A DNA stretch of 64,000 nt from an uncultured Candidatus Saccharibacteria bacterium (lineage in GTDB: Bacteria > Patescibacteriota > Minisyncoccia > Phycocordibacterales > UBA2100), in NCBI GenBank assembly GCA_964654205.1, contig CAZZHR010000002.1, positions 65,800 to 129,799 on the forward strand. The letters are read 5' to 3'. Below, piece by piece: positions 5,886 to 59,136 of this stretch (within the stretch, counting starts at the first letter, position 1; every line of letters begins with the position of its first letter). A program made the position numbers and the translations under genes. Below the pieces are notes generated by a model that saw nothing but the letters and a program-made list of their open reading frames with translations, had not been told where the DNA came from and ran no database searches.

Positions 5886-6905
5886 CTACAGTCGCTTCGC
5901 GACTTCACTCACATGCTCGACGAGCGTGTGCACATATCCCATCTCGTTGTCGTACCACGCGAGCACCTTCACGAGCGTGCCATCTACAACACGAGTCATC
6001 GAGAGGTCGGCGATAGAGCCAAATGGCAGTCCAAGGATGTCGCTCGAGACAAGCGGTTCTTCGCTCACAGCGAAGACTCGCTTCCACCTGTCGCTCTGTG
6101 CCGCTGCCTTCAGGGTGGCGTTCACTTCTTCGGCGCTCGTCGCGCGCTTGGCAACAAAAGTGACATCGACGAGAGAGCCCGCGGGTACGGGCACGCGCAC
6201 CGATACGCCGTCGAACTTTCCCGCAAGCTGCGGATATGCAAGCGCAGTCGCCTTCGCAGCACCGGTCGAGGTCGGCACCATATTGAGCGCAGCAGCACGG
6301 CTTTCGCGGAGATCTTTAGACTTGCCGCCATCTACGAGTGCCTGTGATGCGGTGTATGCGTGCGTCGTATTGAGAATCGCTCGCTCGATGCCTATCGCTT
6401 CATCCAAGATGCCCACGAGGGGTGATGCGGCGTTGGTTGTGCAGGAGGCATTCGATGAAATGTCACACGTGCCCTGGCCGGGCAGGCCGAATTTCGATTC
6501 GTTCGCCCCGATGAGTATGGTCTCAAGCCCATCGCCTTTCCCAGGTGCAGAGATGACGACTTTCTTTGCACCCGCGGTGATGTGTCCGCGCGCTTTTTCA
6601 GCATCGGTGAAGAAACCTGTCGATTCGACGACAATGTCGATGCCGAGGTCTTTCCATGGGAGTTTTTCAGGCTCTTTCTCTGCAGTTATACGCACGTTCC
6701 TCCCCCCTATCACGAGCCCGCCATCGCCCACTGCGACTTCGAATTTCGCCTTTCCATAGACAGAATCGTAGGTGAGGAGATACGCGAGGCTCTCCGCGGG
6801 GGTGAGGTCGTTGACCGCGACGAGTTCGAGGCCAGGCCTATCGTGTATCGCCCGCGCGAACCCCCTGCCAATCCTGCCAAATCCATTGATTGCAATTTTT
6901 GCCAT
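5886..6905 (-). CDS. gap: glyceraldehyde-3-phosphate dehydrogenase, type I
   Basis: MAKIAINGFGRIGR, the SNASCTTN catalytic-Cys motif and WYDNEMGY. I trimmed the 424-aa ORF to the conserved N-terminus. Confidence 0.95.
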   Translation of the reverse strand: MAKIAINGFGRIGRGFARAIHDRPGLELVAVNDLTPAESLAYLLTYDSVYGKAKFEVAVGDGGLVIGGRNVRITAEKEPEKLPWKDLGIDIVVESTGFFTDAEKARGHITAGAKKVVISAPGKGDGLETILIGANESKFGLPGQGTCDISSNASCTTNAASPLVGILDEAIGIERAILNTTHAYTASQALVDGGKSKDLRESRAAALNMVPTSTGAAKATALAYPQLAGKFDGVSVRVPVPAGSLVDVTFVAKRATSAEEVNATLKAAAQSDRWKRVFAVSEEPLVSSDILGLPFGSIADLSMTRVVDGTLVKVLAWYDNEMGYVHTLVEHVSEVAKRL

Positions 6906-7875: not shown

Positions 7876-9141
7876 TCAATTTTCAGGTGTGGTGGTCGCT
7901 TGCTGCACTTGTTCGCTCTCTGTAGCCACTGGCTCGGTAGTTGTCGCTGGGATTTCTATCTCCGTACTTCCTGCTTCGGTATTCGTGCTTCCCATTCCAC
8001 TCTCCGTACTCCCCCCTTCGTTCCCTCCGCTCTCATTCGACGCTTCTTCATTCATACCTCCTATTTCGTCTCCTTGTTCTTCTTGGACTTCTTCTTGGGC
8101 AGGCGTGCTCGTTGCCGAAATCGTGTCGCTCGACGCTTCTTCATTCGTACTTCCTCCTTCTCCTGCTGGACTTTCAACGTTCACATTTTCACTTTCAACC
8201 TGCGGCGGAGCCGCCGGCCTCACATTCCCCGCCTCGCTCACTTCGCCACCCGGATTCGCAGCATCACCCACGAGCACGATGCGGCGCACTGTTATCACTG
8301 CACCGCCTGGGTCTGTCGCGCTGTATTCAATCGAGTGCGCAGTCGTCGTCGAGGTATCGATGCCAGTCCATGTCGCTTTCTCGACGCCGTTGATGCGCAT
8401 ATACACGCCCGCGTTGGTCTGGTATGGATCGACGAGTACCGCGCCGAGGTCTGCGTAGCTCGCACCGAGCGGAATACGCGCCGGATTGTTGCCGAGGAGC
8501 TGCAGACCTATCTTGAGCCCGCTCGCGCTCGTACTTCCTGCTTCGTTACTCGTACTTCCGTTTCCGCTTCCATCTGCGGGACCAAAGACCGCGGCCGCTG
8601 CGGCCACCTGCGGCTGGACGACAGGGGTGTAGCCGGGGAGCGTCTCGGTGCTGTCATCGAGGAATTTGCCGATAAGGCCGCCGTACGACGTCGCTACGGT
8701 GAGCTGCGTCACTGCGCTCCGCGCGTTCTCTTGTGTCTTGCTCAGCCGCGAAGCCTCGCGTTCTATCACTTGCCTGAGCTGCTGCGTCACGTACAGGCCG
8801 AGGTCGCGATACTCGCCGAGGTCTGTCTTCGAGACCTGCATCGTTACTTTTTTGATTACGTCCTTCCAGACGTACTCGTCGACATCTATCGTGTGGAATT
8901 CGTACTCTACGAAATAGTCGTTCTCGTCTTCGGTGACCGCGGTGATGACAGCACGCGGGCTGTAGCTCGAGAGGTCCTTGCCGACGAGGTAGGTGTTGTC
9001 CACGGTGAGCACTTCATGCTGCTGCGAGTAGATGGCCTCCGGATTCGTCGCCGCAAAGACCCCCGTGCCGCCTAGAATCAGGATGCCGAGTGCCACCGGC
9101 ACGGCATTGTGATACTGAAAGAAGTGAAGAAGTGGGGTCAT
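7876..9141 (-). CDS. membrane-anchored surface protein with an Ig-like (DUF5011-type) domain and an acidic low-complexity tail
   Basis: N-terminal TM (VPVALGILILGGTGVFA). The segment GNNPARIPLGASYADLGAVLVD...SIEYSATDPGG fits the DUF5011 Ig-like pattern. The C-terminal 120 aa or so are rich in E/S/T/G. Confidence 0.72.
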   Translation of the reverse strand: MTPLLHFFQYHNAVPVALGILILGGTGVFAATNPEAIYSQQHEVLTVDNTYLVGKDLSSYSPRAVITAVTEDENDYFVEYEFHTIDVDEYVWKDVIKKVTMQVSKTDLGEYRDLGLYVTQQLRQVIEREASRLSKTQENARSAVTQLTVATSYGGLIGKFLDDSTETLPGYTPVVQPQVAAAAAVFGPADGSGNGSTSNEAGSTSASGLKIGLQLLGNNPARIPLGASYADLGAVLVDPYQTNAGVYMRINGVEKATWTGIDTSTTTAHSIEYSATDPGGAVITVRRIVLVGDAANPGGEVSEAGNVRPAAPPQVESENVNVESPAGEGGSTNEEASSDTISATSTPAQEEVQEEQGDEIGGMNEEASNESGGNEGGSTESGMGSTNTEAGSTEIEIPATTTEPVATESEQVQQATTTPEN

Positions 9142-9175
9142 AGGTGAGAGGTTAGAGTTGATAGTTTTTAGTTGA
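9141..9175 (+). repeat. direct repeat copy 1: TAGGTGAGAGGTTAGAGTTGATAGTTTTTAGTTGA
   Basis: About 29/35 identical to the copy at 9532-9566. It spans the stop codon and 3' end of the four-helix-bundle gene. Confidence 0.8.
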
Positions 9176-9598
9176 TAAGGGTGTACGCAACTTCCCGATA
9201 ATCGCCGTAAGCATTCGCTGTACTTCGTCGAGCAATTCGATGGATTTGGAGAAATCTATACTGGGAAAGAGCCGTTGCGCCGCGAGAAGCTGTGTTTCCA
9301 GCTCCGCGGCTGAACCAGCCGAGACGCATAAGAATTGCGCGTAATCCTTCCTTGTCCCCCTCTTTGTACCCTCGGCTATGTTTGAGGGGATTGATATTGC
9401 GGCGCGCCGCATCTGGCTCATCAGACCAAACTGCTCCGACTGTGGGAGTTTCGCGGTATCGCGGTACATCGTTTCGACAAGACTCATAGCCCTCTGCCAC
9501 ACGACCAAATCCTTGAAAGACCGCACAGGGGTAGGTGCGAGGTTAGAGTTTTTAGTTTTTAGGTTTGAGCTGTGTGTCGTTTTCATATTTCTTTTCAC
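9152..9598 (-). CDS. four-helix-bundle protein of the 23S rRNA intervening-sequence (S23-IVS) family
   Basis: FKDLVVWQRAMSLVETMY, SQMRRAAISIPSNIAEG and SAGSAAELETQLLAA are hallmark motifs. The start is GTG 9598 or ATG 9586. Confidence 0.85.
   Translation of the reverse strand: MKRNMKTTHSSNLKTKNSNLAPTPVRSFKDLVVWQRAMSLVETMYRDTAKLPQSEQFGLMSQMRRAAISIPSNIAEGTKRGTRKDYAQFLCVSAGSAAELETQLLAAQRLFPSIDFSKSIELLDEVQRMLTAIIGKLRTPLSTKNYQL
9532..9566 (+). repeat. direct repeat copy 2: TAGGTGCGAGGTTAGAGTTTTTAGTTTTTAGGTTT
   Basis: Lies in the 5' codons of the four-helix-bundle gene, 391 bp from copy 1. Confidence 0.8.
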
Positions 9599-9601
9599 TA
9601 A

Positions 9602-9615
9602 AACCTCTAACCTAT
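9602..9615 (-). repeat. inverted copy: ATAGGTTAGAGGTT on the minus strand
   Basis: 13/14 match to ATAGGTGAGAGGTT at 9140-9153 in inverted orientation. The two copies bracket the four-helix-bundle gene. Confidence 0.75.
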
Positions 9616-10112
9616 AAACTCATCACTACCTTCCCAATAATGTCGACTTGTTGAACTGCTCCGAAGACGCGCCCATCGCTGCTCTTGCTGCGATTGTCAC
9701 CGAGCACAAGGTAATCTTCTGGCCCGAGTTGCATACGAAATGCTCCATTGTTCGTCCCGCCTATCATGCTTCCCGTCTCGTACCTCGTACTCTTTCCTTC
9801 GCTATCAGTGACCGTCACTCCATCTTCGCCAAGCTCTACAAGCTCACCGGGCAAGCCAATCACCCGTTTCACTTCAATCACCTCTTTCTGGTGCGGATTG
9901 CGATGCACGAGTATGTCGCCACGGCTAATGTGGAATCGGTGAGTCACCTTTTCGACGATAACAACGTCGTTCGCAGAAAACGTCGGCTCCATCGAGCCGC
10001 CAGAGACCACGTACGGACGGAAAATGAAAACCGAAGACAGCAGCGCGAGCGCAATGACAGTCGCAATCGTCTCTTTGTGCGTTCGTATCGTTGTGTGCAA
10101 TTGGTACGTCAT
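9612..10112 (-). CDS. lepB: signal peptidase I (S26 family)
   Basis: SGGSMEPTF (catalytic Ser), VKRVIGLPGE (Lys box), VLGDNRSKSSDGR and an N-terminal TM. Confidence 0.9.
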   Translation of the reverse strand: MTYQLHTTIRTHKETIATVIALALLSSVFIFRPYVVSGGSMEPTFSANDVVIVEKVTHRFHISRGDILVHRNPHQKEVIEVKRVIGLPGELVELGEDGVTVTDSEGKSTRYETGSMIGGTNNGAFRMQLGPEDYLVLGDNRSKSSDGRVFGAVQQVDIIGKVVMSL

Positions 10113-10114
10113 AT

Positions 10115-13100
10115 CTAAATTTCCATCCCGAGCATGAGCGCGAGGGCTTGGACGAAGCTGTTTGATGTGGCGGCAGGGGCGGCAGAATATTTGAACGGCT
10201 GCTCCGCGAACGCGGCGTAGACCATTGTGTCGCCGCTCGTGTTGAGGAAGGTGGTTCTTAACTTGAAACCATTGGCTAGAGAATCAATGACGTCTGCGGG
10301 TGCCGACTCTTGAGACGAACCATCGGCGCCCAAAACGCCACTTATTGGATTGTAGGTGTTCCTTGTTGTATCCAACATCCACCAACTACCCGTCGTTCCA
10401 ACCGCGGGCTTAAGCATGACAAACCGCGGCTTGAAGCCGGTGTAGACGAACGGACCGTCGGTCGAGCCATTGCCGGTGTAGGAGCCAAATGCCGACATGC
10501 CGGTCGTGGAGGCAAAGAGGTACGCCGCGTACTCGCTCCCGCCACCTACGCCGCCCGGTGTGCTCGAGGAATCGGTGAGTGCGCCGTTCTCCGTAAATGC
10601 TCCGCCTCGCCCCCTGTTGATGTGCCAATTGTCGCTCGTTCCAGAGAAGTACACATCGGGGACGAGTGTGGAACCGACCCCGATGACGGGCACGGGTTCG
10701 CCATTCGCGTCGATGAAGAAGCGCCTATTGGCTTCGACCGAGAGGTCCAGGCTCGTCCCGAACTTTATCCAAAGGTCTTTGATGTCTCCCGTGAGCTTGA
10801 AGCCCGCGTCCGGTTCCGCCCCCACCGCGAAGTTGCCTCTCGTCCAGTCGATCGTGTCGTTGGTAAGCGTGGAGCCGCCCGAATTGAAGTCGCTCACATC
10901 GTTGCGGTAGACCCAGGCGGAGCCGGTGTTTAGGTCGACCGAGAAGAGGTAGTGCACCCAGCCACTCGAGGCGAGCGTCTGCGTCGAGGAGTTCAGGATC
11001 ATGTCGAAGTTGTTGGACGCGTCGAGCCCCACGACCTGGATCACCTGCGTACCCGCCGTGCGTACGATGTAGAAGCCCGTGCCGAGGTCTCCCGTCGCTG
11101 CGATCGTCTGGTTGGTGCTATCTGCGCCCGTAATGTTGACCCAAAAAGAGACAGTTAACCGTTTGCCGTCCACGACGTCTGTGAGGTTTGCACCGCGCGT
11201 GAGGTAATCGTTGGTACCGTCGAAATGCGCGGCGCCGCCTTTGTTCACATCGGCATTCGTCCCCACGGTGAAGGCGCTTGCGGTAGGCGCGGTGTCGTTC
11301 CAGTAGGTCGCGTCGTCGGCAGTCGCAGCTGTGCTGTTGAGCAATAGATAGTCAGTCGCCGGTGCAGATGTATTGGACGAGTGATAGACCGCCCAATCGC
11401 CGGAGCCCGAAGCTTGTGTGTACGAGCGGAGCATCGCGCTCCCCTGATCGGCGATCGCCACGCTTGTGGCAGAGAGCGCCGCAACCGCGGGGTTCGGAGT
11501 CGTGCCGTCGACGATACCGCTCCCGTCGGCCACCTCTCTCCAATCGGTACCGTCGAAGGCGTACACACGGAGCTCGTTGGTCGTTGAGTCCACGAATGCC
11601 ACTCTGTTGCGGCCCAGCGCCGCCATGCCCGTCGAGCCTCCACTCGATTCGATTGTGAGAGAATTGCCCACCTGAGACCAATTCGTGCCGTCGAAATCAT
11701 ACGCGCGCAGCTGCTTTGTCCCCGAGTAGTCGTAGAGGGCTACGCGCGAAGCCGAGAGCGCCGCGAGGGAAGGGAGTGTGATGCCGCTGATGTTGAGCTC
11801 GTTCCCAGTCAGAGTCCAGTTGGTGCCGTCGAAATCATACGCGCGCAAGTCGTCGTTGGTGCCGTCGATAAAGGCTATGCGGTCGGACAGGAGCCCCGCA
11901 AGCGCGGGAGATCCCACGCCCGAGATGTTGAGCTCGTTGCCGGTCAGCGACCATGTAGAGCCGTTGAAATCGTATGCGCGCAAGTCGTCATTCCCGCTGT
12001 CAATAAATGCGACACGGCTCGAAAGCATAGTTGCGAGCGAGGGCGACCCTATACCCGAGATGCTGAGTCCGCTTCCTGTGAGAGACCAATTCGACGAGCT
12101 CAGGTCGTATGCGCGCAAAGACGCATTCCCGAAATCAACATATGCCACCCTCGTCGCGGAGAGCGCGGCAAGCGCGGGAGTATTGATACCGCTTATCGTG
12201 AGGCTGTTGCTCGTCTGTGCCCAGTCTCCGCGCACCTCTTTCACGAGCATGAAGTCCGGCGCTTTACCGAGCGAATGGCTCACCGTCCTGCTCTTACCCG
12301 TCCCCTTGTACGAGACGATGTCGAACCCGGCCTCCGCCGTCTCTTTCCAGAGCCATGAGATGTAGTTCTTGCCGCTCGTGTTGACGTTGGCCGAGCTCGC
12401 GCCGGAGCCGAGGCTGAAGCCGTTGTCGTCGTACGACGTGAGCGATTCCGTGTCGTCGACATCTTCACCGGCGGTCAGATTGGAGCTGAGCCACGCCTGC
12501 ACCCCGCGCAGAGCATCGAAGAGCGCATGGTTGGTCGAAGCGTCGGTACGGTTCTTTATCCACACGAGGTCGGGGCTAAAGCCGGTAACCGTTGTGCTTG
12601 TACCCGTCTGGTAGACAGACTTTGCCGCACCCGTGCCTGCGTACGCGATCGCATCAAAATAATTCTTCGGCACCACCACATCCGGCTCGGGCAAGTTGGC
12701 GGTCGAGAGTGCTTTGAAGCCAGAGGGCGGTTCGTATCTGAAATATCCCCCCGCCGCCGAGTAGTGCGTCGTCGTAGTTGTCCCTGGCTGACCAAAGTTT
12801 ATTGAAGCGCTTGCACCCGTGTAGACGGCGAGTGATGGAAATACAGGGTCAGCTCCGCTGAGTGTGGCGGCAGCTCCTGTGCCTCCTACTGGGTCACCAC
12901 TGTTCTGCCATGTCCCGTTTTTTGAGAAGTAAATCTTCTTGTTATCCAAATCAAGCGCTACACCGACGACATCGTTCGTTGTAAACGTATTGCCGTACGC
13001 GGCATTGGTCCCTCCGTTGTACGTCGTACCATCATGCCCGTAGTAGCTGATGCCCCCATTAGCAGACGAGCCGCCGGGAAATGCGCCGAGTGTCATCGGA

Positions 13101-14242
13101 GTGAACGCTGTGGAAGTTGCAACCCCGACGAGATAAAAATTACTGCCACTACTCTGTGCACCAGCTGTCACTTCCCAATACCATTTACCACTCGTGACAC
13201 CAATAATTGAGAGTGCCGTAAGAAAATTCCCAGCACTATGAGTCATACTCAAGTTGCCTTGAGAAAGAGTCAGCGAAGAGTTTTTGTAAATCGAGTTAAG
13301 TGTCGCAAACGCGTTCGTCGGGGTGTCGATGACTTGGTCGGTTGCGTCGAGGTTGTTGGCGGTCCAGTTGTTGCCGTTGCCGGATGTGTCGGTGCCAAGC
13401 GCCGCACTGTTGCCAAAGGCGAGCTTGAAGCCATTTGTCCCATACGTGCCCGTGTACGACTTCGGCCGCCAGTATCCATTGGCGTCGTACTCGCCGAAAG
13501 AGGTGGGCGTGAGCGCCTGCCCGTCGACAAAATGTAGGTCGGAGAGGTAGACATCAATCGAGCAACATGCACCCCCTTGTTGCTGACCGATACGATTGTT
13601 CGCATTGGCGAGCGCGAATTGGTACTCAGCGTTTTGTGCGGGATAATTCGCAGCGTCAAACGCCGTAATCTGCATCCCATCGATGTACATCTTCACTCTA
13701 TTCGCTGCAGTCGCATCTGTCGTGTCCCACACAACTACGACATGCATCCATTTTGATGGATCGCGAAAAAGTGCCGAGCTGCGAAGTTCGGCGGAAGTAG
13801 CCCCGCCGAAGGCGAAACTCAGGTTGTCCGCTGCAGCGCCGCCCGCCCCGAATTCAAGCCACGAAGAATTGCTCGACGAACCATCGTAGCCGGCAACTAT
13901 CGTTTGTCTCGTCCCCAAATTCCCCCTTTTTATCCACGTAGATATCGTTCCCTTCTTACGGTCAGCGGGTGCACCGGAGAATGTCTTGCTTAGGTTTGCA
14001 CTGTCATCGTCGTTGAAGCGAGCGCTGTTCGCGATCGTGTACGCCGCCTCCGCCTGCGGGAGTGTGAGAAGCGCAAACTGCGCGCCAAACCACGCCAGCG
14101 CGACAATCGCCGCCACAACCACCCGCCACCTCCACAGCCCGTTCAAAGCGTTCAAGGAGGCGTGCAAGGGGCGCCCTTGCACATGTGCAAGGGCGCCCCT
14201 TGCGCCGGAGATTTTGAGAAACTTGGTGAAGAGATTACTCAT
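10115..14242 (-). CDS. giant (1375 aa) signal-anchored surface protein: LamG, SPRY, six 45-aa repeats, LamG, plus three copies of a phage-structural-protein-like module
   Basis: One uninterrupted ORF with an N-terminal TM (VVVAAIVALAWFGAQFALL). Its domain signatures are listed as separate features. Its start forms an ATGA overlap with the RAYT stop. Confidence 0.9.
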   Translation of the reverse strand: MSNLFTKFLKISGARGALAHVQGRPLHASLNALNGLWRWRVVVAAIVALAWFGAQFALLTLPQAEAAYTIANSARFNDDDSANLSKTFSGAPADRKKGTISTWIKRGNLGTRQTIVAGYDGSSSNSSWLEFGAGGAAADNLSFAFGGATSAELRSSALFRDPSKWMHVVVVWDTTDATAANRVKMYIDGMQITAFDAANYPAQNAEYQFALANANNRIGQQQGGACCSIDVYLSDLHFVDGQALTPTSFGEYDANGYWRPKSYTGTYGTNGFKLAFGNSAALGTDTSGNGNNWTANNLDATDQVIDTPTNAFATLNSIYKNSSLTLSQGNLSMTHSAGNFLTALSIIGVTSGKWYWEVTAGAQSSGSNFYLVGVATSTAFTPMTLGAFPGGSSANGGISYYGHDGTTYNGGTNAAYGNTFTTNDVVGVALDLDNKKIYFSKNGTWQNSGDPVGGTGAAATLSGADPVFPSLAVYTGASASINFGQPGTTTTTHYSAAGGYFRYEPPSGFKALSTANLPEPDVVVPKNYFDAIAYAGTGAAKSVYQTGTSTTVTGFSPDLVWIKNRTDASTNHALFDALRGVQAWLSSNLTAGEDVDDTESLTSYDDNGFSLGSGASSANVNTSGKNYISWLWKETAEAGFDIVSYKGTGKSRTVSHSLGKAPDFMLVKEVRGDWAQTSNSLTISGINTPALAALSATRVAYVDFGNASLRAYDLSSSNWSLTGSGLSISGIGSPSLATMLSSRVAFIDSGNDDLRAYDFNGSTWSLTGNELNISGVGSPALAGLLSDRIAFIDGTNDDLRAYDFDGTNWTLTGNELNISGITLPSLAALSASRVALYDYSGTKQLRAYDFDGTNWSQVGNSLTIESSGGSTGMAALGRNRVAFVDSTTNELRVYAFDGTDWREVADGSGIVDGTTPNPAVAALSATSVAIADQGSAMLRSYTQASGSGDWAVYHSSNTSAPATDYLLLNSTAATADDATYWNDTAPTASAFTVGTNADVNKGGAAHFDGTNDYLTRGANLTDVVDGKRLTVSFWVNITGADSTNQTIAATGDLGTGFYIVRTAGTQVIQVVGLDASNNFDMILNSSTQTLASSGWVHYLFSVDLNTGSAWVYRNDVSDFNSGGSTLTNDTIDWTRGNFAVGAEPDAGFKLTGDIKDLWIKFGTSLDLSVEANRRFFIDANGEPVPVIGVGSTLVPDVYFSGTSDNWHINRGRGGAFTENGALTDSSSTPGGVGGGSEYAAYLFASTTGMSAFGSYTGNGSTDGPFVYTGFKPRFVMLKPAVGTTGSWWMLDTTRNTYNPISGVLGADGSSQESAPADVIDSLANGFKLRTTFLNTSGDTMVYAAFAEQPFKYSAAPAATSNSFVQALALMLGMEI
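10748..11236 (-). other. second LamG/concanavalin-like (Laminin_G_3-type) domain, aa ~1003-1165
   Basis: AAHFDGTNDYL...LTVSFWVN...GWVHYLFSVDLNTGSAWVYRND...FAVGAE fits the Laminin_G_3 pattern. Confidence 0.65.
11408..12217 (-). repeat. six tandem in-frame ~135-bp (45-aa) repeats, likely a beta-propeller
   Basis: Unit consensus LRAYDFDGTNW(S/T)LTGNELNISG(I/V)GSPSLAALSxxRVAFxDxxNDx. The GAAATCRTAYGCGCGCA motif recurs about every 135 nt on the plus strand. Confidence 0.85.
12788..13345 (-). other. SPRY/B30.2-like domain, aa ~300-485
   Basis: The TSGKWYWEV signature, then VVGVALDLDNKKIYFSKNG and FPSLAVYTGASASINFG, match the SPRY pattern. Confidence 0.7.
13508..14035 (-). other. first LamG/concanavalin-like domain, aa ~70-245
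   Basis: GTISTWIKR...WMHVVVVWDTT...VKMYIDG...SDLHFVDGQAL fits the Laminin_G_3 pattern. Confidence 0.65.
14163..14204. repeat. REP-like palindrome doublet: TGCAAGGGGCGCCCTTGCA-CATG-TGCAAGGGCGCCCCTTGCg
   Basis: Two 19-nt near-palindromes (8-bp stems) in inverted orientation form a 42-nt palindrome. It lies within codons 13-27 of the 1375-aa ORF, 35 nt downstream of the RAYT stop. Confidence 0.85.
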
Positions 14243-14901
14243 ACTTCGTCGAGCATTAATTCTCGGACTGTCGATTTCCGTGCGACGATGTCGTCGAAAG
14301 CGTCTTCAACGAAACGCTGGTACTCGCGCGCACTCTTGAAGTGCTCAAGGATTGTTGCCGTATCACACAATCCCCCGGTATCTGGCGAGAGGTACTCGGC
14401 ATAGCTACTATGCGGCCACTTTCGAGCGTCTCGCACAAGCTTCGCCACTTGGGGATTCACATGAATATAGGCCGAGAGGTGTTTGAGTTGCGTATCGTCT
14501 ACCACATGCACGGCCTTGATGCGATCCTGAAATACATGTCCCACATGATCGTACTTGCGATTGAAGTACATCGAGTAGCTCGTCAGTAGTTTCAGAAAAA
14601 GTTTACTAATCGATACATCTTTGTTCTGTCGTATGAGAAAATGGAAATGATTAGGCATAAGACAGTACACAGCAATCGAGAATGCATCTCTTTCGAATGG
14701 CTCGATGCGAATCTGGACGCGCTTCCCGCCGGTGTGCAAGGGCGCCCCTTGCACATCGCGACCGAGAGAGCGCATAAGTCGGTCTAGGAAAACTCGTGCA
14801 TCCTCATCATCTCGAAGGATGTCCATCTTGCCATTGCCGCGGCTGAAGAGGTGGTACCACTCTCCTGTCGAGAACTCTTTGTAGTCGCGTGAATTTGTCA
14901 T
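14239..14901 (-). CDS. REP-associated tyrosine transposase (RAYT) / IS200-like Y1 transposase homolog
   Basis: WYHLFSRGN, the HUH motif CLMPNHFHFLI, GHVFQDR and YIHVNP (catalytic Tyr region). There is no second IS gene. Confidence 0.85.
   Translation of the reverse strand: MTNSRDYKEFSTGEWYHLFSRGNGKMDILRDDEDARVFLDRLMRSLGRDVQGAPLHTGGKRVQIRIEPFERDAFSIAVYCLMPNHFHFLIRQNKDVSISKLFLKLLTSYSMYFNRKYDHVGHVFQDRIKAVHVVDDTQLKHLSAYIHVNPQVAKLVRDARKWPHSSYAEYLSPDTGGLCDTATILEHFKSAREYQRFVEDAFDDIVARKSTVRELMLDEV
14735..14753. repeat. third copy of the REP-like palindrome, inside the RAYT ORF and in frame
   Basis: TGCAAGGGCGCCCCTTGCA on the plus strand. It encodes VQGAPLH between the N-terminal strand and the HUH motif. 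Confidence 0.85.
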
Positions 14902-21349: not shown

Positions 21350-21650
21350 GAGCGATGATGCCTGTGGCCGGACGCACGATTTATCTAATATTCTACTACT
21401 CTTTTCGCCAATTGGACGTGTATCGGACACTATTACGTGTGGACAAGCCTAAGCAGAATTTGTACCGGACATTTTTTACATTTTTTCCCACAAGTTCGTA
21501 TCAACGCACAAAAAATTCTCCGTTTTTTTGAAAAAAAGCCTCTTCACTACAACCTCTCACCTCTTACCTACCCCCCTCCTCCCGGCCGACTCGGGCATCC
21601 GAGGAGCGACGTAGAGCGGTATTCCGCGCGTGTGTGGCGCAGAAAATGAA

Positions 21651-21670
21651 CGGCGCCCAATTGGGCGCCG
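21651..21670 (-). terminator. hairpin / terminator: CGGCGCCCAATTGGGCGCCG
   Basis: A perfect 20-nt palindrome 26 nt downstream of the 21696 stop, followed on the minus strand by TTCATTTT. Confidence 0.55.
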
Positions 21671-27439: not shown

Positions 27440-27759
27440 ATGTATCTCTGATGTAGAAATCAGTTATATGAAATTACTTTCACAGGAAGATATTCAGTAC
27501 GTACTTGAGAAGACATTTCCTTCCGTACACTCCGCGTCGCTCGCCCATACGCAGAAACACCCTTCTGAGGGGTGTTTCTGAAAGACGCACAGCGGAGGAC
27601 GGGTGCGAGCTCCAAAAAAAGTGAAAGTCTTATGTGAGTGCCGCCGCCCTCCGCAATACGCCCTTTTAGTCCTACGACAAAGAGTAACACCCTGTCCTTG
27701 AGTGACAACCTCTATTCGTTGCACACTACTCAGATACGAGACTTGCGTATAATCAGCCA
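27440..27759 (-). ncRNA. candidate structured RNA of unknown class, possibly a long 3'UTR
   Basis: It lies downstream of a duplicated TATAAT promoter element at 27766-27771. It contains a 10-bp hairpin (27553-27579), a long imperfect hairpin (GCGGAGG 27592-27598 pairs with CCTCCGC 27648-27654) and a terminal hairpin at 27448-27463 followed by a T-rich run. No convincing ORF is present. Confidence 0.3.
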
Positions 27760-27772
27760 TGGCGGATTATAA
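27747..27772. promoter_or_regulatory. 26-bp near-palindrome GTATAATCAGCCATGGCGGATTATAA, a candidate operator that contains TATAAT
   Basis: Half-sites TATAATC / GATTATA lie around a central CCATGG. The 18-bp core ATGGCGGATTATAAACAA (27759-27776) is repeated exactly at 28456-28473. Confidence 0.5.
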
Positions 27773-27786
27773 ACAAGCGCGTGAGC

Positions 27787-28422
27787 CTATCGTTCTCCCA
27801 AACCGAAGTGCACTCGCAAGGGTTTATCGTACTCGATTGCGTCCGCAATAATGTATCTCACCTCCGTTCGCAGCGATGCGTCTAGCTTCAGAAGCGTTAT
27901 GATTTCTTCACAATCATACGGGTGCACCCATACGCTGTTTTGCAATCGGTGAAAACCAAGTCTCTTTAATATTTCGCGTACACGATCTCGCGTAGAGCGC
28001 CGCGCATGCGGAATGTCGAATATCACGACTCGCCAACGTCCGTCCCATCGACGCGGCCTAGGTATTTCTACGGCCGAAAGCCGGATGCGTTCCGCATGTG
28101 ACTTTCCCCTCTCCGTCAGTATGGGGTAACGTTTGCCCGAGTGCCGCATAAACTCGACCATCCCTTTTTTCTTCAATCTCGAGAGTGTCTCCCGCAGCCT
28201 CTGCGTGGGCTGCGGGGGCAGGATTACATCAAGGTGTTCTCTTTTGATGAGCGCAGCGACTTTCGGCGCCATCACCGCTACCGTGAGAATTCCTCCGAGA
28301 GCGAGCGTACCTATCACAGCTCTTTCTATCGATCCGCGTCTCAACCGCAGACGAACTCCACTCTCCTGGGATACGCGCGATTCTTGCTCACGCCTCTTCT
28401 GGGTATTCTGTTTTTGCCGCAT
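27787..28422 (-). CDS. PaaX-family-like regulator with a Cas2/VapD-fold C-terminal domain
   Basis: LRETLSRLKKKGMVE (winged-helix-like), then WDGRWRVVIFDIPHARRSTRDRVREILKRLGFHRLQNSVWVHPYD, typical of PaaX C-terminal or Cas2-like domains. ATG 28422 has TACAAT 6 nt upstream. TTG 28437 is an alternative start. Confidence 0.7.
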   Translation of the reverse strand: MRQKQNTQKRREQESRVSQESGVRLRLRRGSIERAVIGTLALGGILTVAVMAPKVAALIKREHLDVILPPQPTQRLRETLSRLKKKGMVEFMRHSGKRYPILTERGKSHAERIRLSAVEIPRPRRWDGRWRVVIFDIPHARRSTRDRVREILKRLGFHRLQNSVWVHPYDCEEIITLLKLDASLRTEVRYIIADAIEYDKPLRVHFGLGER

Positions 28423-28428
28423 GAGTGC

Positions 28429-28434
28429 ATTGTA
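28429..28434 (-). promoter_or_regulatory. -10 box TACAAT 6 nt before ATG 28422 (leaderless geometry)
   Basis: The minus strand reads gtTACAATgcactcATG. Confidence 0.45.
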
Positions 28435-28443
28435 CAAACTTGT

Positions 28444-28469
28444 TTATAACTCGCTATGGCGGATTATAA
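28444..28469. promoter_or_regulatory. second copy of the palindromic operator/promoter element: TTATAACTCGCTATGGCGGATTATAA
   Basis: An imperfect palindrome that shares the exact 18-bp core with 27759-27776. It lies 22-50 nt upstream of the regulator gene start. Confidence 0.5.
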
Positions 28470-28622
28470 ACAATTCAGGAATGTTCCCTTTAGTCCTGTT
28501 GTGCAGTGTGCATAAACTGAATACCGCCCTTTCGGGCGGTACTTCAGCGACTTTCAATCTGCGAGCCACACTTTGTGGCACTCACGTATTCATTATATGT
28601 ACCGCGCAGCGACGCGCAAGTA

Positions 28623-48419: not shown

Positions 48420-49444
48420 ATATGCATTTCTCTTCTTAGCATCCCGACCAGTGTACCCAAACTATGATCACGCGCCACTTGCTCACGCAGTTCATTCGTG
48501 CCCGCCGAGCCAAGGAACTGCTCGATCCGATCCGACAGCTGATGAGCATCACCCGCTTTGAACCATAGCTTGTCTCCTGCGAATTGCCGATAATCCTCAC
48601 TGCATGCGATGCTTGTGCATCCACAGGCAACCGCTTCGAAGATGGTCTTGTCGAACATACCGCTCGCGCTCGCGTTGACGAATACCTCGTGCACGGAATA
48701 GATAGCTGGCGTTTCGCTGTTCTTCACGCCTGGATAGAATACTACGTTGTCGGAAAGGTTATTCTCGCGGACGAAACGCTTTTGGTCTTCGAGATACCCA
48801 GCACCTTTTGGCAGTGCGTCGCCGTACATCGAAGCCGTAAAATCAATTCCTCTGCTCTTCAAAATCTTGAACGCCTCGAGCATCACGTGGATATTTTTCG
48901 ATGGTGCAATGCGGCCGAGCGAAAGGATACTGCGCGGTTTACGCTCCATCCCAGGCACTGGCCTGAACATATCAGTGTCAATGCCGACAGGCATCAGTAC
49001 ATTCTTTCGATATTTCGCGACGTACGAGCTTTTCGACGTACAGAATGTTTTATGCGAGAGCGCTACGGCTATATCTGTGACAATCCCGGGCGCCCAGTGA
49101 TTGCGCCAGAGATACACGCGCTTGCCCATGAGCCGCCAGAAGATACCGCCGAGCACGACGTACTCCGGATTCATATGTACGAAGACCGCGTCGTACTCGC
49201 GTCGAAGCGTCCACGCGAGTCGATAAAACCGAAGTATATAAAGCAACCGGTTACCACCAGATTCTTTGCCGAGCGAGTACACCTGTACATTCGCCGGGAC
49301 ATCGTGTGCTCCGACACGCAGCCCCACCGCGTGAATGTGCGGGAACTTCGCCGCAAAAGCACGCAGCCACCCATGGAAAAACCCCAACACGGGGTCTTTC
49401 GTATCTATCGCCTGTGTAAACACGAGAAGCCTCGTCCCGTTCAT
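48416..49444 (-). CDS. GT4-like glycosyltransferase, paralog of the C-terminal half of 49441-51423
   Basis: LLVFTQAIDTKDPVLGFFHGWLRAF...VQVYSLGKE aligns with VLVCTESVDRSDPLLGYFHGWLREF...VTEHSLGKE in the next gene. Confidence 0.8.
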   Translation of the reverse strand: MNGTRLLVFTQAIDTKDPVLGFFHGWLRAFAAKFPHIHAVGLRVGAHDVPANVQVYSLGKESGGNRLLYILRFYRLAWTLRREYDAVFVHMNPEYVVLGGIFWRLMGKRVYLWRNHWAPGIVTDIAVALSHKTFCTSKSSYVAKYRKNVLMPVGIDTDMFRPVPGMERKPRSILSLGRIAPSKNIHVMLEAFKILKSRGIDFTASMYGDALPKGAGYLEDQKRFVRENNLSDNVVFYPGVKNSETPAIYSVHEVFVNASASGMFDKTIFEAVACGCTSIACSEDYRQFAGDKLWFKAGDAHQLSDRIEQFLGSAGTNELREQVARDHSLGTLVGMLRREMHI

Positions 49445-51423
49445 GATGTGTAGTGCGAATGTTCTCCGCCCTCCCTCGTCAACATTTCGAGCATGTTGGG
49501 GACGACAGAGGAGAGCGCGTGCTCGCGGCGCACGTAGGCACGCGCAAGAGCGCGCGCATGCTCGCGCTTCTCTTCCGAGAGCGCGAGCGCGGCCTTGATA
49601 GCTACGGCTACGCTCTCAGGCGTGACTTCCTCGAGGAACAGCCTCGGCTCGATGACCCGTTGCACCTCCTTTTCTGAGGTAATCACAAGACAGCCGGCCG
49701 CCATCGCCTCATAGAGCGTCTTTTTTGAGCCGTGCGCGGAACCCGCGTGAATGAAAATCTCATGCGATGCGTAGATGCCCGGCGTCTTCTCATGGAGCAC
49801 CGTCCCGCGATACGCGACTGCTCCGCTGCGTTCTGCGTCGGTGAACTGGGAGCGGAGCTTCGCCGCGTACGCTTCATCTCCCGGTCGCGGCTCCCCGTAG
49901 ACATCGAGCGAGAAGTTGTGGACGTTCTCGCGCACCTGCGCGGCGGCCGCGATGACCGACTCGAGTCGCTTCGATTGATGGATGCGGCCCATAAAAAGCA
50001 GCGACTCTTTCGGCGCAGAGCGTAATGCGGAATACATGTCCGTATCGATGCCCATCGGGACGTACCGCGCGTGTGCAAGCCGGGCGGCATACGAATCCTT
50101 GCTCGAATAGAAGACGATGTCGGCGAGCTGCATCGCCATGCGCGCCATCCATGTCGCGCGCGCGTCGTTGTGCCAGAAACCGACGCGCTTGCCGAGCAGC
50201 TTCCAGAGCCACCCGCCGACGACGGCAAACTCGGACGAGAGATGGACGAGTACCGCGTCGTACTCGCGGCGATGCTTCCACGCCACGGAAAGCAGGCGCG
50301 CCGAGTACACGAGTCGGCGGAAGAACCGCCCCACGGCCGACATCGATTCCTTGCCGAGACTGTGTTCAGTCACGTTGGGTGGGAGCCCCCTGTCGCCGTA
50401 GCCGAGGCAGACGACGTGCAGCCTGTGTGCGTGACGTGCAAACTCCCTAAGCCAGCCGTGGAAGTAGCCGAGGAGCGGGTCGGAGCGGTCTACCGATTCA
50501 GTGCAGACGAGCACTTTCACCTCGCCGCGCAGCGAGCTCAATTTCGGGAGCTCCATCCGTTCGAACGGCTCTTTGAGCACCGACTTTCCATACACGCCCT
50601 CAAGGAGGTCGAGGTCTTTGCCCGTGCCGCGGAGGAGTTCGATATTTTTACGCTCCATGGCTTCCAAGAGCGCCGTACCTGCTTCATTGCCAATCTTTGT
50701 GCTGTATTCGCCTCGGAGAGCCGCGACATCTTTGATAAAACAGTGGCCGCCCGCGCCGCGTCCGCTTTTGTGTATCGGGCGAGCGTAGCGATTGTTGACG
50801 AGAGGGTCCGCTTCGATGGCGCGCTGAATCATGTGCCAATTGCAGCCGTGGTGCGCCGCGAGGTCGTACATGAGGTTGAAAAAGAGTATTTGCGTGTAGC
50901 CGCTCCCGTTGTGCGAGTACTTGATGATCTCGGCTTCCGTGCTCGAGCATGTCTGCGCATATGGCGCAGTCGGAAGGACAGAGTGGATGAGCGCTGCGGC
51001 AGCCTTCTGCTTCGGCGTGTCTTCTGTGAGCCCTACGATGTTCATAAAAGGATGCGCCGCGTCGTGCGCCGCGGTCGCCTCGCTGAGAAATTCCGGCGAG
51101 TAGATGACTGTCTTGTCGGGGAACTCGGTCTGTAATACTTTTGCAGTGCCAGGCACGATGGTCGATTTTATGACTGCAACTTTGTTTTTTCCCACGAGCT
51201 CAATTGCGGATCGGACGATCGAGTAGTCGAATCCCGATGGCGTGGTCGGAGTCGGCACTGCGATAAAGACGAGGTCGCACTCAAGCACCTTGTCCCTATT
51301 TCGCACATAGGGCTCTTCGAGGGCATAGCGGACGCACGCATAGCCGCGGCGCTCGAAATCGTCGGCATAATTCTTGCCGATGAATCCCTGCCCTATGAAC
51401 CCGATGAGCGGCGTGTCTTTCAT
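49441..51423 (-). CDS. fusion protein: UDP-glucose/GDP-mannose dehydrogenase-like N-terminal half plus a GT4-like glycosyltransferase C-terminal half
   Basis: IGFIGQGFIGKNYA Rossmann motif, VFIAVPTPT and GGHCFIKD (catalytic Cys region), then the GT domain described above. Confidence 0.78.
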   Translation of the reverse strand: MKDTPLIGFIGQGFIGKNYADDFERRGYACVRYALEEPYVRNRDKVLECDLVFIAVPTPTTPSGFDYSIVRSAIELVGKNKVAVIKSTIVPGTAKVLQTEFPDKTVIYSPEFLSEATAAHDAAHPFMNIVGLTEDTPKQKAAAALIHSVLPTAPYAQTCSSTEAEIIKYSHNGSGYTQILFFNLMYDLAAHHGCNWHMIQRAIEADPLVNNRYARPIHKSGRGAGGHCFIKDVAALRGEYSTKIGNEAGTALLEAMERKNIELLRGTGKDLDLLEGVYGKSVLKEPFERMELPKLSSLRGEVKVLVCTESVDRSDPLLGYFHGWLREFARHAHRLHVVCLGYGDRGLPPNVTEHSLGKESMSAVGRFFRRLVYSARLLSVAWKHRREYDAVLVHLSSEFAVVGGWLWKLLGKRVGFWHNDARATWMARMAMQLADIVFYSSKDSYAARLAHARYVPMGIDTDMYSALRSAPKESLLFMGRIHQSKRLESVIAAAAQVRENVHNFSLDVYGEPRPGDEAYAAKLRSQFTDAERSGAVAYRGTVLHEKTPGIYASHEIFIHAGSAHGSKKTLYEAMAAGCLVITSEKEVQRVIEPRLFLEEVTPESVAVAIKAALALSEEKREHARALARAYVRREHALSSVVPNMLEMLTREGGEHSHYTS

Positions 51424-57927: not shown

Positions 57928-59136
57928 CTACACCGTATCCTCAACGATGCCCCACTCGCCCTGCCGCTTCCGGCGCACCGCCATCACAGCGCCACCAGTG
58001 AGGAGCGCGAGTGCGACGGGAGCAAACCACCACATGCTCATGCCGAACGATGCGCTTGCGGCAGCGACGGTAGGACGCACCACATCCGTGGCCGATTCTG
58101 GTACCACCTCCACCGCTTCAGTTTCCTCGTCGGGGGCAGCGGGAGAGAGTTGCACGGACGCGCGAGATGCGGGCTTAGGCGCTACACTCGACTGCACCGC
58201 TTGGAATTCGCTCGGCGAGGGCGCTGACGCTGGCGCACTCTGTGTGGGCGCATCACCCGCTTTCATCGCGAGTACGCCGTTGGGGTACGCGAGCTCCGCC
58301 TCCGCTCCTGCAAAAAAGCCGAGTGTTTTCGGAGATACCCGCATCGACGAGCCGGCAAGAATGAAGGAGTTGTCGGGCAGAAGAAATTCGCGCATGAATG
58401 CGCGAATAATCCATGAGGATAGGTCGAGATCTCGATCTGCATGGTTCTCGATTATCACGCTTCCGTCGGACTCAGCGCGAAACGCCAGCCGCGCTGGTTC
58501 TGCTGTGACGACGATACGGTCGCTTGCGGACTCAATGTCCTTAGCAACGGAGAGCACGACGACGTATTTCCCAGGGTACTCATAGTGGTGCGTCACGGTC
58601 GCACCTTCTGCCGTACCCCCATCGCCGAAGTTCCAGTTGAACCGCACATTGTCGAGGGGCTCCTTCTTCTTATTGTAGGCGCGTGCGCGATACGTCGTGT
58701 GCGCACCGACGATGACGACTCTGTCCTCGCCCGCGTCGACGAAGACTGAGGGGTCTGGCGGCGCTACGTATGACGAGACGGGTGCAATCTGCTGTGTCGT
58801 CGCTGTGGTCTGGGTATTCGTCGACTGAGTAGTGGTCGTGCTGGTGTCGGTTCCCGATGTTGTCTGTGCTTGTGATGATCCTCCTGGAGCTTCGCCGACG
58901 GTGATGAGATGTTTAAAATTGTCGAAAGTCGACGGTCCGATGCCATTGACATTGATGATGTCCTCAATTGTCGCGAAGGGGCCGTTCGTCGTCCTGTAAT
59001 CGATTATTCTCTGGGCCAAGGTAGGCCCAATGCCCGGGAGAGTATCGAGCGTTGCGAGGTCCGCCGTGTTGATATTGATGAGCGCATGCGCCGGGAGCGG
59101 CGCAAGAAGCAATATGAGTGCGACAAGCCATCGCAT
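57928..59136 (-). CDS. comEA: ComEA-like DNA receptor: signal peptide, tandem helix-hairpin-helix, Thr-rich linker, PKD domain, lamin-tail-like domain, C-terminal TM
   Basis: INTADLATLDTLPGIGPTLAQRII...NVNGIGPSTF (HhH). FNWNFGDGGTAEGATVTHHYEYPGKYVV (PKD). SVIIENHADRDLDLSSWII (LTD-like). WWFAPVALALLTGGAVMAV (TM). Confidence 0.8.
   Translation of the reverse strand: MRWLVALILLLAPLPAHALININTADLATLDTLPGIGPTLAQRIIDYRTTNGPFATIEDIINVNGIGPSTFDNFKHLITVGEAPGGSSQAQTTSGTDTSTTTTQSTNTQTTATTQQIAPVSSYVAPPDPSVFVDAGEDRVVIVGAHTTYRARAYNKKKEPLDNVRFNWNFGDGGTAEGATVTHHYEYPGKYVVVLSVAKDIESASDRIVVTAEPARLAFRAESDGSVIIENHADRDLDLSSWIIRAFMREFLLPDNSFILAGSSMRVSPKTLGFFAGAEAELAYPNGVLAMKAGDAPTQSAPASAPSPSEFQAVQSSVAPKPASRASVQLSPAAPDEETEAVEVVPESATDVVRPTVAAASASFGMSMWWFAPVALALLTGGAVMAVRRKRQGEWGIVEDTV

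Follow-up and report, generated by a model that had tools for sequence, protein, structure and literature searches.

A four-helix-bundle gene between complementary heptamer arrays in a protein-coding operon of an uncultured Saccharibacteria bacterium has the layout of an rRNA intervening sequence

The DNA analyzed here, called the window throughout, is a stretch of 64,000 nucleotides (nt) with a G+C content of 56% from an uncultured Candidatus Saccharibacteria bacterium (assembly GCA_964654205.1, contig CAZZHR010000002.1, positions 65,800 to 129,799); its relatives are metagenome assemblies of Patescibacteria, also known as the Candidate Phyla Radiation (CPR). Between lepB and a gene for an immunoglobulin (Ig)-like surface protein, the window carries an open reading frame (ORF) for a four-helix-bundle (4HB) protein of the PF05635 / TIGR02436 family, which is the protein family of the 23S ribosomal RNA (rRNA) intervening sequences (IVSs). 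The layout of the element is that of an rRNA IVS set in an ordinary operon, with a G/T-rich array carrying (T/G)AG in each unit on the 5' side of the ORF and a C/A-rich complement of that array on the 3' side. The reading we favor, and consider reasonably probable, is that of an IVS-type PF05635 cassette in a protein-coding operon, its complementary heptamer arms probably forming a stem that RNase III can cleave.

The cassette lies in a minus-strand operon of four genes arranged head to tail: a DUF7483/SPRY gene (1375 amino acids (aa), 10115-14242), the upstream host gene lepB for signal peptidase I (9612-10112; Peptidase_S26, PF10502, E = 9e-33), the 4HB ORF (148 aa from a GTG, 9152-9598; PF05635, E = 1.2e-31) and the Ig-like gene downstream (421 aa, 7876-9141). 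The cassette fits exactly into the space from the stop of lepB to the start of the Ig-like gene, and its arms supply the former codon and the A of the latter; the lepB stop codon (9612-9614) falls within the 5' arm and the ATG of the Ig-like gene starts at the final base of the 3' arm (9141). A first-pass annotation, made from the sequence without database searches, had placed a four-helix-bundle gene of the 23S-IVS family between lepB and a surface-protein gene, and the PF05635 and PF10502 matches bear this out. The Ig-like match of the 421-aa protein is weak, its E-value of 1.5e-3 falling short of the Pfam cut-off; orthologues of this protein are 40-73% identical (alignment A2).

The same annotation had described three repeats around the 4HB gene, namely a 13/14 inverted repeat at 9140-9153 and 9602-9615, a direct repeat of ~35 bp, and a 12-mer that recurs at 21551-21562 in the leader of another gene; all three are in the sequence where it had put them. 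The inverted repeat, ATAGGTGAGAGGTT (9140-9153) against the reverse complement of 9602-9615 (ATAGGTTAGAGGTT), has 13 identical positions out of 14 and can be lengthened to 26 nt with 77% complementarity. The direct repeat, 31 nt at 90% identity (9141-9171 versus 9532-9562; score 22, z = 16.8, above all shuffles), is a second copy of the 3' arm near the 5' end of the ORF. Allowing at most one mismatch, the 12-mer AGGTKAGAGGTT has five matches in the 64 kb where 0.25 are expected, a count that none of 100 shuffles reaches; four of the matches are in the cassette and the fifth, on the minus strand, is at 21551-21562. Two properties of these repeats had been missed. Positions 9540-9556 are complementary to 9597-9613 (17 nt, 94%, arms 40 nt apart), and therefore the 5' arm is able to form a local hairpin around the start codon. 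Moreover, all the repeats are built of heptamers in tandem, of the form (T/G)AGGTnn in the upstream arm and of its complement downstream.

The 5' arm (9594-9628, minus strand) consists of the five heptamers TAGTGAT GAGTTTA TAGGTTA GAGGTTT TAGTGAA, whose inverted-repeat partner is 9133-9172. It holds the last five codons of lepB and its TAG stop, a GAGG resembling a Shine-Dalgarno (SD) sequence (9604-9607), and the GTG start codon of the 4HB ORF (9596-9598). The distal 3' arm (9141-9175, on the same strand) reads TAGGTGA GAGGTTA GAGTTGA TAGTTTT TAGTTGA on the plus strand and provides the closing stem of the predicted fold; it holds the last codons of the ORF, its stop codon TAA (9152-9154) and the first base of the next ATG. 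The proximal extra copy of the 3' arm (9532-9566, minus strand) encodes ..LKTKNSNLAPT.., and as a direct repeat it spans codons ~11-22 counted from the GTG, the distal counterpart comprising the last 7 codons, the stop codon, a 10-nt spacer and the A of the next ATG. In each arm stop codons fall in all three reading frames and so close them.

The conserved 4HB core corresponds to residues 29-131 (9206-9514, minus strand; Pfam envelope), and the match to PF05635 reaches 109.5 bits, where the cut-off is 33.8, and covers positions 1-105 of the 106 in the model; with TIGR02436 the score is 111.1 bits against a cut-off of 24. Since homologues are mostly 115-125 aa long and cover 73-86% of the query, the first ~28 and last ~10 residues of the window protein are extras, the N-terminal 28 aa and the C-terminal tail being encoded by repeat DNA. 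In public records the identical protein (P0001, 100%) is called from the ATG at 9586 and has 144 aa. The closest solved relative is XCC0516 of Xanthomonas campestris (PDB 2GSC_A, E = 1.7e-22). The motif RxxxSxxxNxxE is present, with R61, S65, N69 and E72 invariant (alignment A1); the leading G of the longer form GxxRxxxSxxxNxxE reported for Xcc0516 homologues is Q58 in the window protein and its close relatives.

Minimum free energy and centroid folds of 9125-9630 show a terminal stem in which the arms close the whole ORF, as the first-pass annotation had envisaged for the transcript. The same closure is predicted for the orthologous cassette of a relative (L084), which folds around its ORF with its own arms (z = -2.4, 0 of 100 shuffles as good). 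The duplex between the 5' and 3' arms of L084 reaches -36.8 kcal/mol, against -18.2 +/- 4.2 for shuffles. The proximal copy of the 3' arm, which lengthens the 4HB N-terminus, is specific to the window, and only a short KTK-coding remnant occupies the place in L084.

Complementary arms are a general property of the close relatives of the 4HB gene. The sample comprised 78 loci of the closest relatives and the window, 79 in all, taken from one-genome-per-species bacterial and archaeal contigs of the CPR, Bacteroidota, Acidobacteriota, Planctomycetota, Firmicutes, Proteobacteria and other phyla. For each locus the 150 nt before the domain core were compared with the 150 nt after it, using an ungapped inverted-repeat score with per-locus shuffles and mismatched-locus controls; this score was adopted because RNAduplex on 160-nt flanks, tried as a test across the family, was confounded by GC content and was dropped. 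In 61 of the 79 loci the best inverted repeat scored above all 40 shuffles, with z >= 4 in 59 loci and z >= 8 in 36. The arms are locus-specific, as the median score was 15 for the two flanks of one locus and 7 for flanks of different loci.

The arms of these relatives share a design more than a sequence. Of the 31 5' flanks that are periodic 26 have a period of 7, as do 33 of the 36 such flanks on the 3' side, compared with any period at all in only 8 of 442 control segments 0.7-1.3 kb away. The arrays typically have 4-5 units (median lengths 31-32 nt) and abut the ORF, the 5' array mostly ending 0-25 nt before its ATG and the 3' array mostly beginning within ~20 nt of its stop. They also have a polarity, with G exceeding C in 37 of 40 5' arrays and C exceeding G in 39 of 44 3' arrays. 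The usual heptamer is [T/C/A]AG[G/T]nnn, and TAG is the commonest trinucleotide of the consensus (20/34). A stop codon that recurs each 7 nt visits all three reading frames; all three frames are closed by 26 of 40 5' arms, versus 15 of 40 when reversed and 6 of 40 when shuffled, and by 23 of 44 3' arms on the other strand versus 13 of 44 on the sense strand. The stop codon of the upstream ORF is mostly at the first unit of the array (-8 to +11 nt in 25 of 33 loci), and in 23 of 36 loci a downstream start codon follows the 3' array after 0-30 nt. In 51 of 67 loci the ORFs on both sides run in the same direction as the gene, which was not used as evidence because it is not clearly above the level of any operon gene. 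Copies on Nostoc plasmids are built likewise, their arms being (CAGGAGT)n/(ACTCCTG)n and (GGGAACA)n/(CTGTTCC)n. An Rfam scan of 40 homologous loci placed none of them in an rRNA and matched no known RNA family.

Further arrays of period 7 occur within 3 kb of the cassette in 14 of 42 loci (e.g., L021:4014-4099, L008:4408-4431 and 5941-5971, and L060:2624-2676), and those of L021 include a convergent pair that has no ORF. The idea that each genome uses one heptamer unit was rejected, as the unit of the cassette is reused in only 4 of the 14 loci with extra arrays.

The junction between lepB and the Ig-like gene varies among relatives. It was surveyed in orthologous lepB operons and 27 metagenome loci with the Ig-like gene, and in 11 loci (L083, L085, L088, L089, L094, L097, L099, L105, L110, L116 and L119) it has no PF05635 gene. 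Among these empty junctions, the stop and start codons overlap as ATGA in L085, L088, L089 and L110, and the other gaps are 2-21 nt; the lepB closest to that of the window, at 73% identity, is in L083. Two loci (L084 and L098) have the junction occupied by an orthologous PF05635 gene whose protein is 64% and 68% identical to that of the window, respectively, values that match or exceed the best non-self match among 5.8 billion proteins. Five more (L090-L093 and L120) have at this place a hairpin of 96 nt that lacks an ORF and whose arms are of period 7, a 126-nt segment with such a hairpin folding at -25.2 kcal/mol (z = -2.4), and in L095 and L096 there are short spacers of 52 and 56 nt. The arms at L084 are TAGCTTT TAGCTTG TAGCTTA CAGCTTG and the complement, and the one arm available at L098 is a (CTAAAAG)5 3' arm. 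Between orthologues all units of both arms differ together, with GGTT in the window, GCTT in L084 and CTAAAAG in the single arm of L098, and their complementarity is therefore actively maintained.

These comparisons support the view of the first-pass annotation that the gene is a cassette rather than an ordinary operon member, for which the empty junctions, the arms of the orthologues and the 61 of 79 loci all speak. It had proposed to look whether orthologous lepB operons lack the cassette, and the 11 loci have no PF05635 gene at the junction. It had also named two findings that would tell against a cassette, the same gene at this junction in relatives without the repeats, and repeats that are common genome-wide. 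In L084 and L098 the gene comes with repeats that differ in sequence and share the period of 7, and within the 64-kb window a scan for period-7 arrays detected none beyond the cassette at the scan threshold.

PF05635 genes occupy other slots in related operons as well, before the DUF7483 gene in L083 and before lepB in L090, L094 and L095. The gene between the DUF7483 gene and lepB at L090:2330-3004 (also in L091-L093) is a divergent PF05635 gene of 205 aa. Its arms have the opposite polarity, CCCTTTC-type at the 5' end and GAAAGGG-type at the 3' end, and the ORF has an internal insertion with a purine-rich/pyrimidine-rich inverted repeat of its own. An apparent 363-nt insertion after lepB in L086 proved to be a difference in gene-start calling from L087, and both of these loci have a different downstream gene.

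The putative inserted segment is 474 nt long (9141-9614, minus strand; TAGGTTAGAGG...CCTCTCACCTA on the mRNA strand), with ends that are ambiguous by a shared TA/TAT and no clear target-site duplication. Removing it in silico gives AGT TTA TGA CCC, in which lepB would end ..S-L-TGA and overlap the next ATG, much as in the empty junction of L085 (AAA CTA TGA GAG). That excision recreates the ATGA overlap would point to a clean insertion of 9141-9614, though only as a suggestion, since L084 does not yield to the same reconstruction, a failure that counts with the contrary points gathered below. In divergence the cassette proteins are roughly on a par with lepB (68%). An old insertion with repeated losses afterwards would be the simplest history, and recent mobility is not indicated.

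Given the above, the following course of events may be proposed for the IVS-type cassette that we favor. Within the polycistronic transcript, the two arms would pair into a stem of ~25-35 bp around the ORF, and, if the homologous IVS in the 23S rRNA of Coxiella is a guide, RNase III would take this stem as a substrate. Cleavage would then free the 4HB mRNA, with the flanking messages staying joined by the base of the stem. The outer arms, closed in all three frames to ribosomes coming from either side, may serve to insulate the cassette and its stem in whatever place it sits. The direct repeat noticed in the first-pass annotation is a duplication of the 3' arm just inside the 5' end, and the duplication would give the 5' arm a competing local hairpin in which the SD sequence and the start codon are buried. 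Recombination between the direct repeats could in turn delete the ORF and leave a hairpin of ~100 nt like that of L090.

A number of observations weigh against this reading. The inverted repeat of the window is by itself marginal, with an ungapped score of 11 (z = 3.1) that ties the best of 40 shuffles. The fold of 9125-9630 is weak overall (z = -1.6), and so is its terminal stem, for the 5' arm and the distal 3' arm form a duplex of -25.9 kcal/mol against -19.6 +/- 3.5 for composition-matched shuffles (z ~ -1.8). The 5' arm also has a local competitor in a hairpin of equal stability, the duplex with the proximal copy being -26.3 kcal/mol (shuffles -17.0 +/- 3.4) and the 101-nt segment that contains the hairpin (9525-9625) folding at -17.3 kcal/mol. 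The window is a rather weak example of the stem architecture. The sample consists of the closest relatives of the window protein and does not represent all PF05635 genes, and armless members of the family exist (the 152-aa gene of L083, copy 2 of L037, and L123). Finally, the stems of 77 loci contain 394 positions that are not Watson-Crick pairs, and among them G·U mismatches (84) are as frequent as A·C mismatches (81; p = 0.88). A large excess of G·U is normal for long-conserved RNA helices; the parity therefore shows no trace of selection for base pairs in the sense RNA. It may mean that the mismatches are young, or that complementarity is kept at the DNA level by slippage and arm-to-arm conversion. 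Mainly for lack of a G·U excess, we hold the RNase III model at moderate confidence and keep a DNA-level rival beside it.

The marginal score of the 13/14 inverted repeat would suit a plainer account, in which the 4HB gene belongs to the operon like any other and the repeats, unlinked to the gene, are either low-complexity sequence arisen by chance or simple repeats of the G-quadruplex (G4) kind, as heptamer arrays elsewhere have been interpreted as G4 motifs. We consider this very improbable, as chance does not account for complementary arms in 61 of the 79 loci, for a 12-mer found 5 times where 0.25 are expected, for a direct repeat with z = 16.8 or for a junction that is empty in most relatives. 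The G-quadruplex reading itself was set aside, since the window heptamers (T/G)AGGTnn have GG only and no GGG tract, which excludes a canonical three-tetrad G4 and leaves the array short of four G3 tracts.

The DNA-level rival, which we regard as possible but doubtful, takes the arms for terminal inverted repeats or hairpins of a small, possibly non-autonomous mobile element, with the RNA stem as a by-product. The arms would be made and homogenized by slippage and by arm-to-arm gene conversion in hairpin or cruciform DNA, and the element would be moved in trans, for instance by a Y1/HUH transposase acting on single-stranded hairpins. The equality of G·U and A·C among stem mismatches and the concerted change of all units of both arms fit this account, as do the variable presence of the cassette at one junction and the occurrence of PF05635 genes in three slots of the same operon. 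A Y1_Tnp ORF (14239-14901) lies in that operon with REP-like palindromes (REP, repetitive extragenic palindrome) beside and inside it, but its link with the cassette is one of proximity alone. In Xanthomonas, 186 arrays of heptamers and 70 convergent pairs are described, most without an ORF (Rehm et al. 2015, PMC4692102). However, loci do not share a conserved terminal sequence that a transposase could recognize, and the 64 kb hold a single cassette and a single solo array. A target-site duplication is not demonstrable, as only the ambiguous TA/TAT is shared. There is likewise no sign of recent movement, because the junction cassettes are about as diverged as lepB.

The solo array is TAGGTAA GAGGTGA GAGGTTG TAGTGAA GAGG (21545-21580, minus strand) in the leader of a 2172-aa gene. 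By hand alignment, 21 of 28 positions match the 5' arm of the cassette, and no inverted partner was found within 700 nt. The array may be a remnant or a half-element; it and the cassette are what the whole window contains of this kind. It lies ~115 nt past the stop of an HTH_17 gene and after a GC palindrome (21651-21670).

The arms may instead be binding sites of the encoded protein, which we think unlikely. A pentameric 4HB ring would take up one heptamer per subunit, in a manner like that of TRAP on (G/U)AG repeats, and by binding its own transcript or DNA would autoregulate translation or processing, or propagate the repeats; such binding is compatible with the favored explanation. Arm length peaks at 4-5 units, four being the commonest number in Xanthomonas too, and XCC0516, the closest solved homologue, is described as an assembly of five four-helix bundles. 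The [T/C/A]AG[G/T] core recurs in each unit as other positions vary by locus, and the 5' arm overlaps the SD sequence and start codon. On the other hand, most heptamer arrays of Xanthomonas have no adjacent PF05635 gene, neighboring arrays in one locus often differ in unit (10 of the 14 loci with extra arrays), and the enrichment of TAG is explained by a function as stop codon too.

Large surface-protein genes next to the 4HB gene also bring to mind the diversity-generating retroelements (DGRs), in which a related protein, Avd, is an accessory; under this reading the 4HB gene would encode the Avd of a DGR that diversifies the neighboring surface proteins. The protein has a weak similarity to bAvd (PF22296, E = 4.4e-4) and to the DGR Avd equivalog, but at 18.5 bits against a cut-off of 80 for the equivalog NF033474 and 21.2 bits against 40 for PF22296 both matches fall far short. 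No reverse transcriptase was found in a Pfam scan of 37 ORFs of the window, a set that takes in all large ORFs outside the neighborhood of the cassette, and no pair of template and variable repeats (TR/VR) was found in the window. With sub-cut-off models and neither of these components, an Avd identity is effectively excluded for the window.

Other repeats and ORFs in the window were noted along the way. The Y1_Tnp ORF is IS200-like (220 aa, minus strand; PF01797, E = 4e-9) and is tightly flanked by the 2172-aa and 1375-aa surface-protein genes, ~5 kb from the cassette in the same operon; the slot it occupies holds the armless PF05635 gene in the relative L083. A perfect palindrome, GTGCAAGGGGCGCCCTTGCAC, is present as a back-to-back double copy within the first ~25 codons of the 1375-aa gene (14162-14203), where it encodes ..GARGALAHVQGRPLHA.., and has one further copy inside the Y1_Tnp ORF (14733-14756). 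Its pattern gives 7 strand matches at 4 sites (0.24 expected), 3 of these sites being the palindrome copies. A similar double palindrome (GCCAAGGGCGCCCCTTGGC x2) is within lepB of a relative (L090:3290-3335), and all these palindromes have the appearance of REP-like mini-elements that were set into coding sequence in frame. A 36-nt direct repeat of 83% identity (27741-27776 and 28438-28473) with TTATAA-type inverted halves brackets a 216-aa ORF (27787-28437, minus strand) that has a PaaX central / Cas2-like domain (PF20803, E = 1.6e-21); these repeats may be operator sites. Two adjacent glycosyltransferase-type genes share a 116-nt direct repeat of 72% identity (49101-49216 and 50168-50283, 1067 nt apart), which probably represents paralogous domains. 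A 626-aa ORF (59199-61079, minus strand) has domains of TrwB, the coupling protein of type IV secretion systems (PF10412, E = 2e-8), and adjoins a PKD/helix-hairpin-helix protein (57928-59136); the pair hints at machinery for DNA uptake or conjugation. An Rfam scan of the 64-kb window returned no RNA family and no rRNA, and a search for tRNAs returned no tRNA gene.

PF05635 genes are annotated by the thousand in bacteria, and we know of no role for them outside the Avd of DGRs. The origin and purpose of rRNA IVSs, in turn, have been open questions since about 1990. The interest of the present case lies less in the window, a weak example, than in the design shared around a common gene of unknown function. 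In the close relatives the flanking design is independent of sequence, with complementary heptamer arms of 4-5 units, the G-rich arm on the 5' side and all three frames closed in most 5' arms. It ties together rRNA IVSs, the heptameric G4 repeats and short tandemly repeated repetitive sequences (STRRs), and the S23p/Avd fold, which are unconnected in the literature searched. Rather tentatively, and with more doubt than belief, one could suppose that PF05635 genes flanked by convergent arrays of heptamers, the far commoner heptamer hairpins that lack an ORF and the classical ORF-bearing rRNA IVSs form one widespread class of hairpin elements within transcription units, of which the ORF-bearing form is autonomous. 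Such a class may take in the Xanthomonas G4 repeats and the IVSs that have no ORF, and presumably also the STRRs of cyanobacteria, whose heptamers we take to be the same kind of repeat as those of Xanthomonas and Nostoc. In that event the pentameric protein would recognize, maintain or spread arrays of 4-5 heptamers; the arms would make the element harmless anywhere by stopping ribosomes in three frames from either side; and the stem would let the host transcript be processed or re-joined. For annotation, the design explains the odd low-complexity N- and C-terminal tails of 4HB proteins and flags the start codons of their genes as unreliable.

Among known systems, bAvd shares with the window protein the superfamily fold of a four-helix bundle and the character of a small basic protein. 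It binds nucleic acid and protein partners. The window protein differs in scoring far below the Avd cut-offs and in having, as far as found in the window, no reverse transcriptase or TR/VR pair beside it. Miniature transposable elements with inverted repeats (MITEs) and REP elements with their REP-associated tyrosine transposase (RAYT/Y1) resemble the cassette in being short, intergenic, hairpin-forming inverted repeats whose presence varies between relatives. Unlike them, the cassette has tandem heptamers of locus-specific sequence in place of a conserved palindrome, carries a conserved protein gene as cargo, lacks a clear target-site duplication and, within the 64-kb window, belongs to no visible multi-copy family of identical elements.

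The GGGAATC repeats of Xanthomonas and GGGGAYT repeats of Nostoc, like the arms described here, have a period of 7 with at least two tandem units, are intergenic and close to the upstream ORF, and often form convergent pairs with the G-rich strands inward. In Xanthomonas the arrays, mostly of 4 units, lie between co-directional ORFs near the upstream one and were read as G-quadruplex motifs of unknown function (PMC4692102). Repeat #15 of that survey, a 4-unit GGGAATC array, lies 6 nt after accB (XCC0517) and overlaps the start codon of XCC0516, and repeats #16 and #17 form a convergent pair 60 nt apart, #16 being 16 nt after groES and 101 nt before groEL (PMC4692102). No link to PF05635 or IVSs was found in the text and supplementary files of that paper. 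The differences are that most Xanthomonas arrays come without an ORF, that the window unit has no GGG, and that one unit dominates the Xanthomonas genome whereas the loci examined here often hold several. A full-text literature search returned no paper that links non-rRNA PF05635 genes to flanking heptamer arms, closed-access work not being excluded. PF05635 genes wedged between cas genes, such as cmr3 and cmr2, have been noted (PMC3936711), and the family has been reported in rRNA insertions of the CPR as well.

The ORF-bearing 23S IVS of Coxiella burnetii and Leptospira likewise combines a PF05635 protein with complementary termini around the ORF. By location the window cassette does not belong with the IVSs, because it is not in rRNA; it lies between protein-coding genes and not in an rRNA helix, and of 40 homologous loci none is in rRNA. 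It further differs in that its arms supply the host stop codon and part of the host start codon, and in its additional internal copy of the 3' arm. Excision by RNase III was shown in vitro for Coxiella and is proposed for the window cassette. The 23S IVS of Coxiella burnetii is 428 nt long, against ~474 nt for the window cassette, and has a PF05635 ORF (S23p) and a 28-bp terminal stem; 3-4 tandem heptamers, GACAGAT, stand just before the start codon, and RNase III cuts in vitro at the first of these repeats (PMC4990558). The window cassette resembles it in having heptamers directly before the start codon and a weak or buried SD sequence that overlaps the arm.

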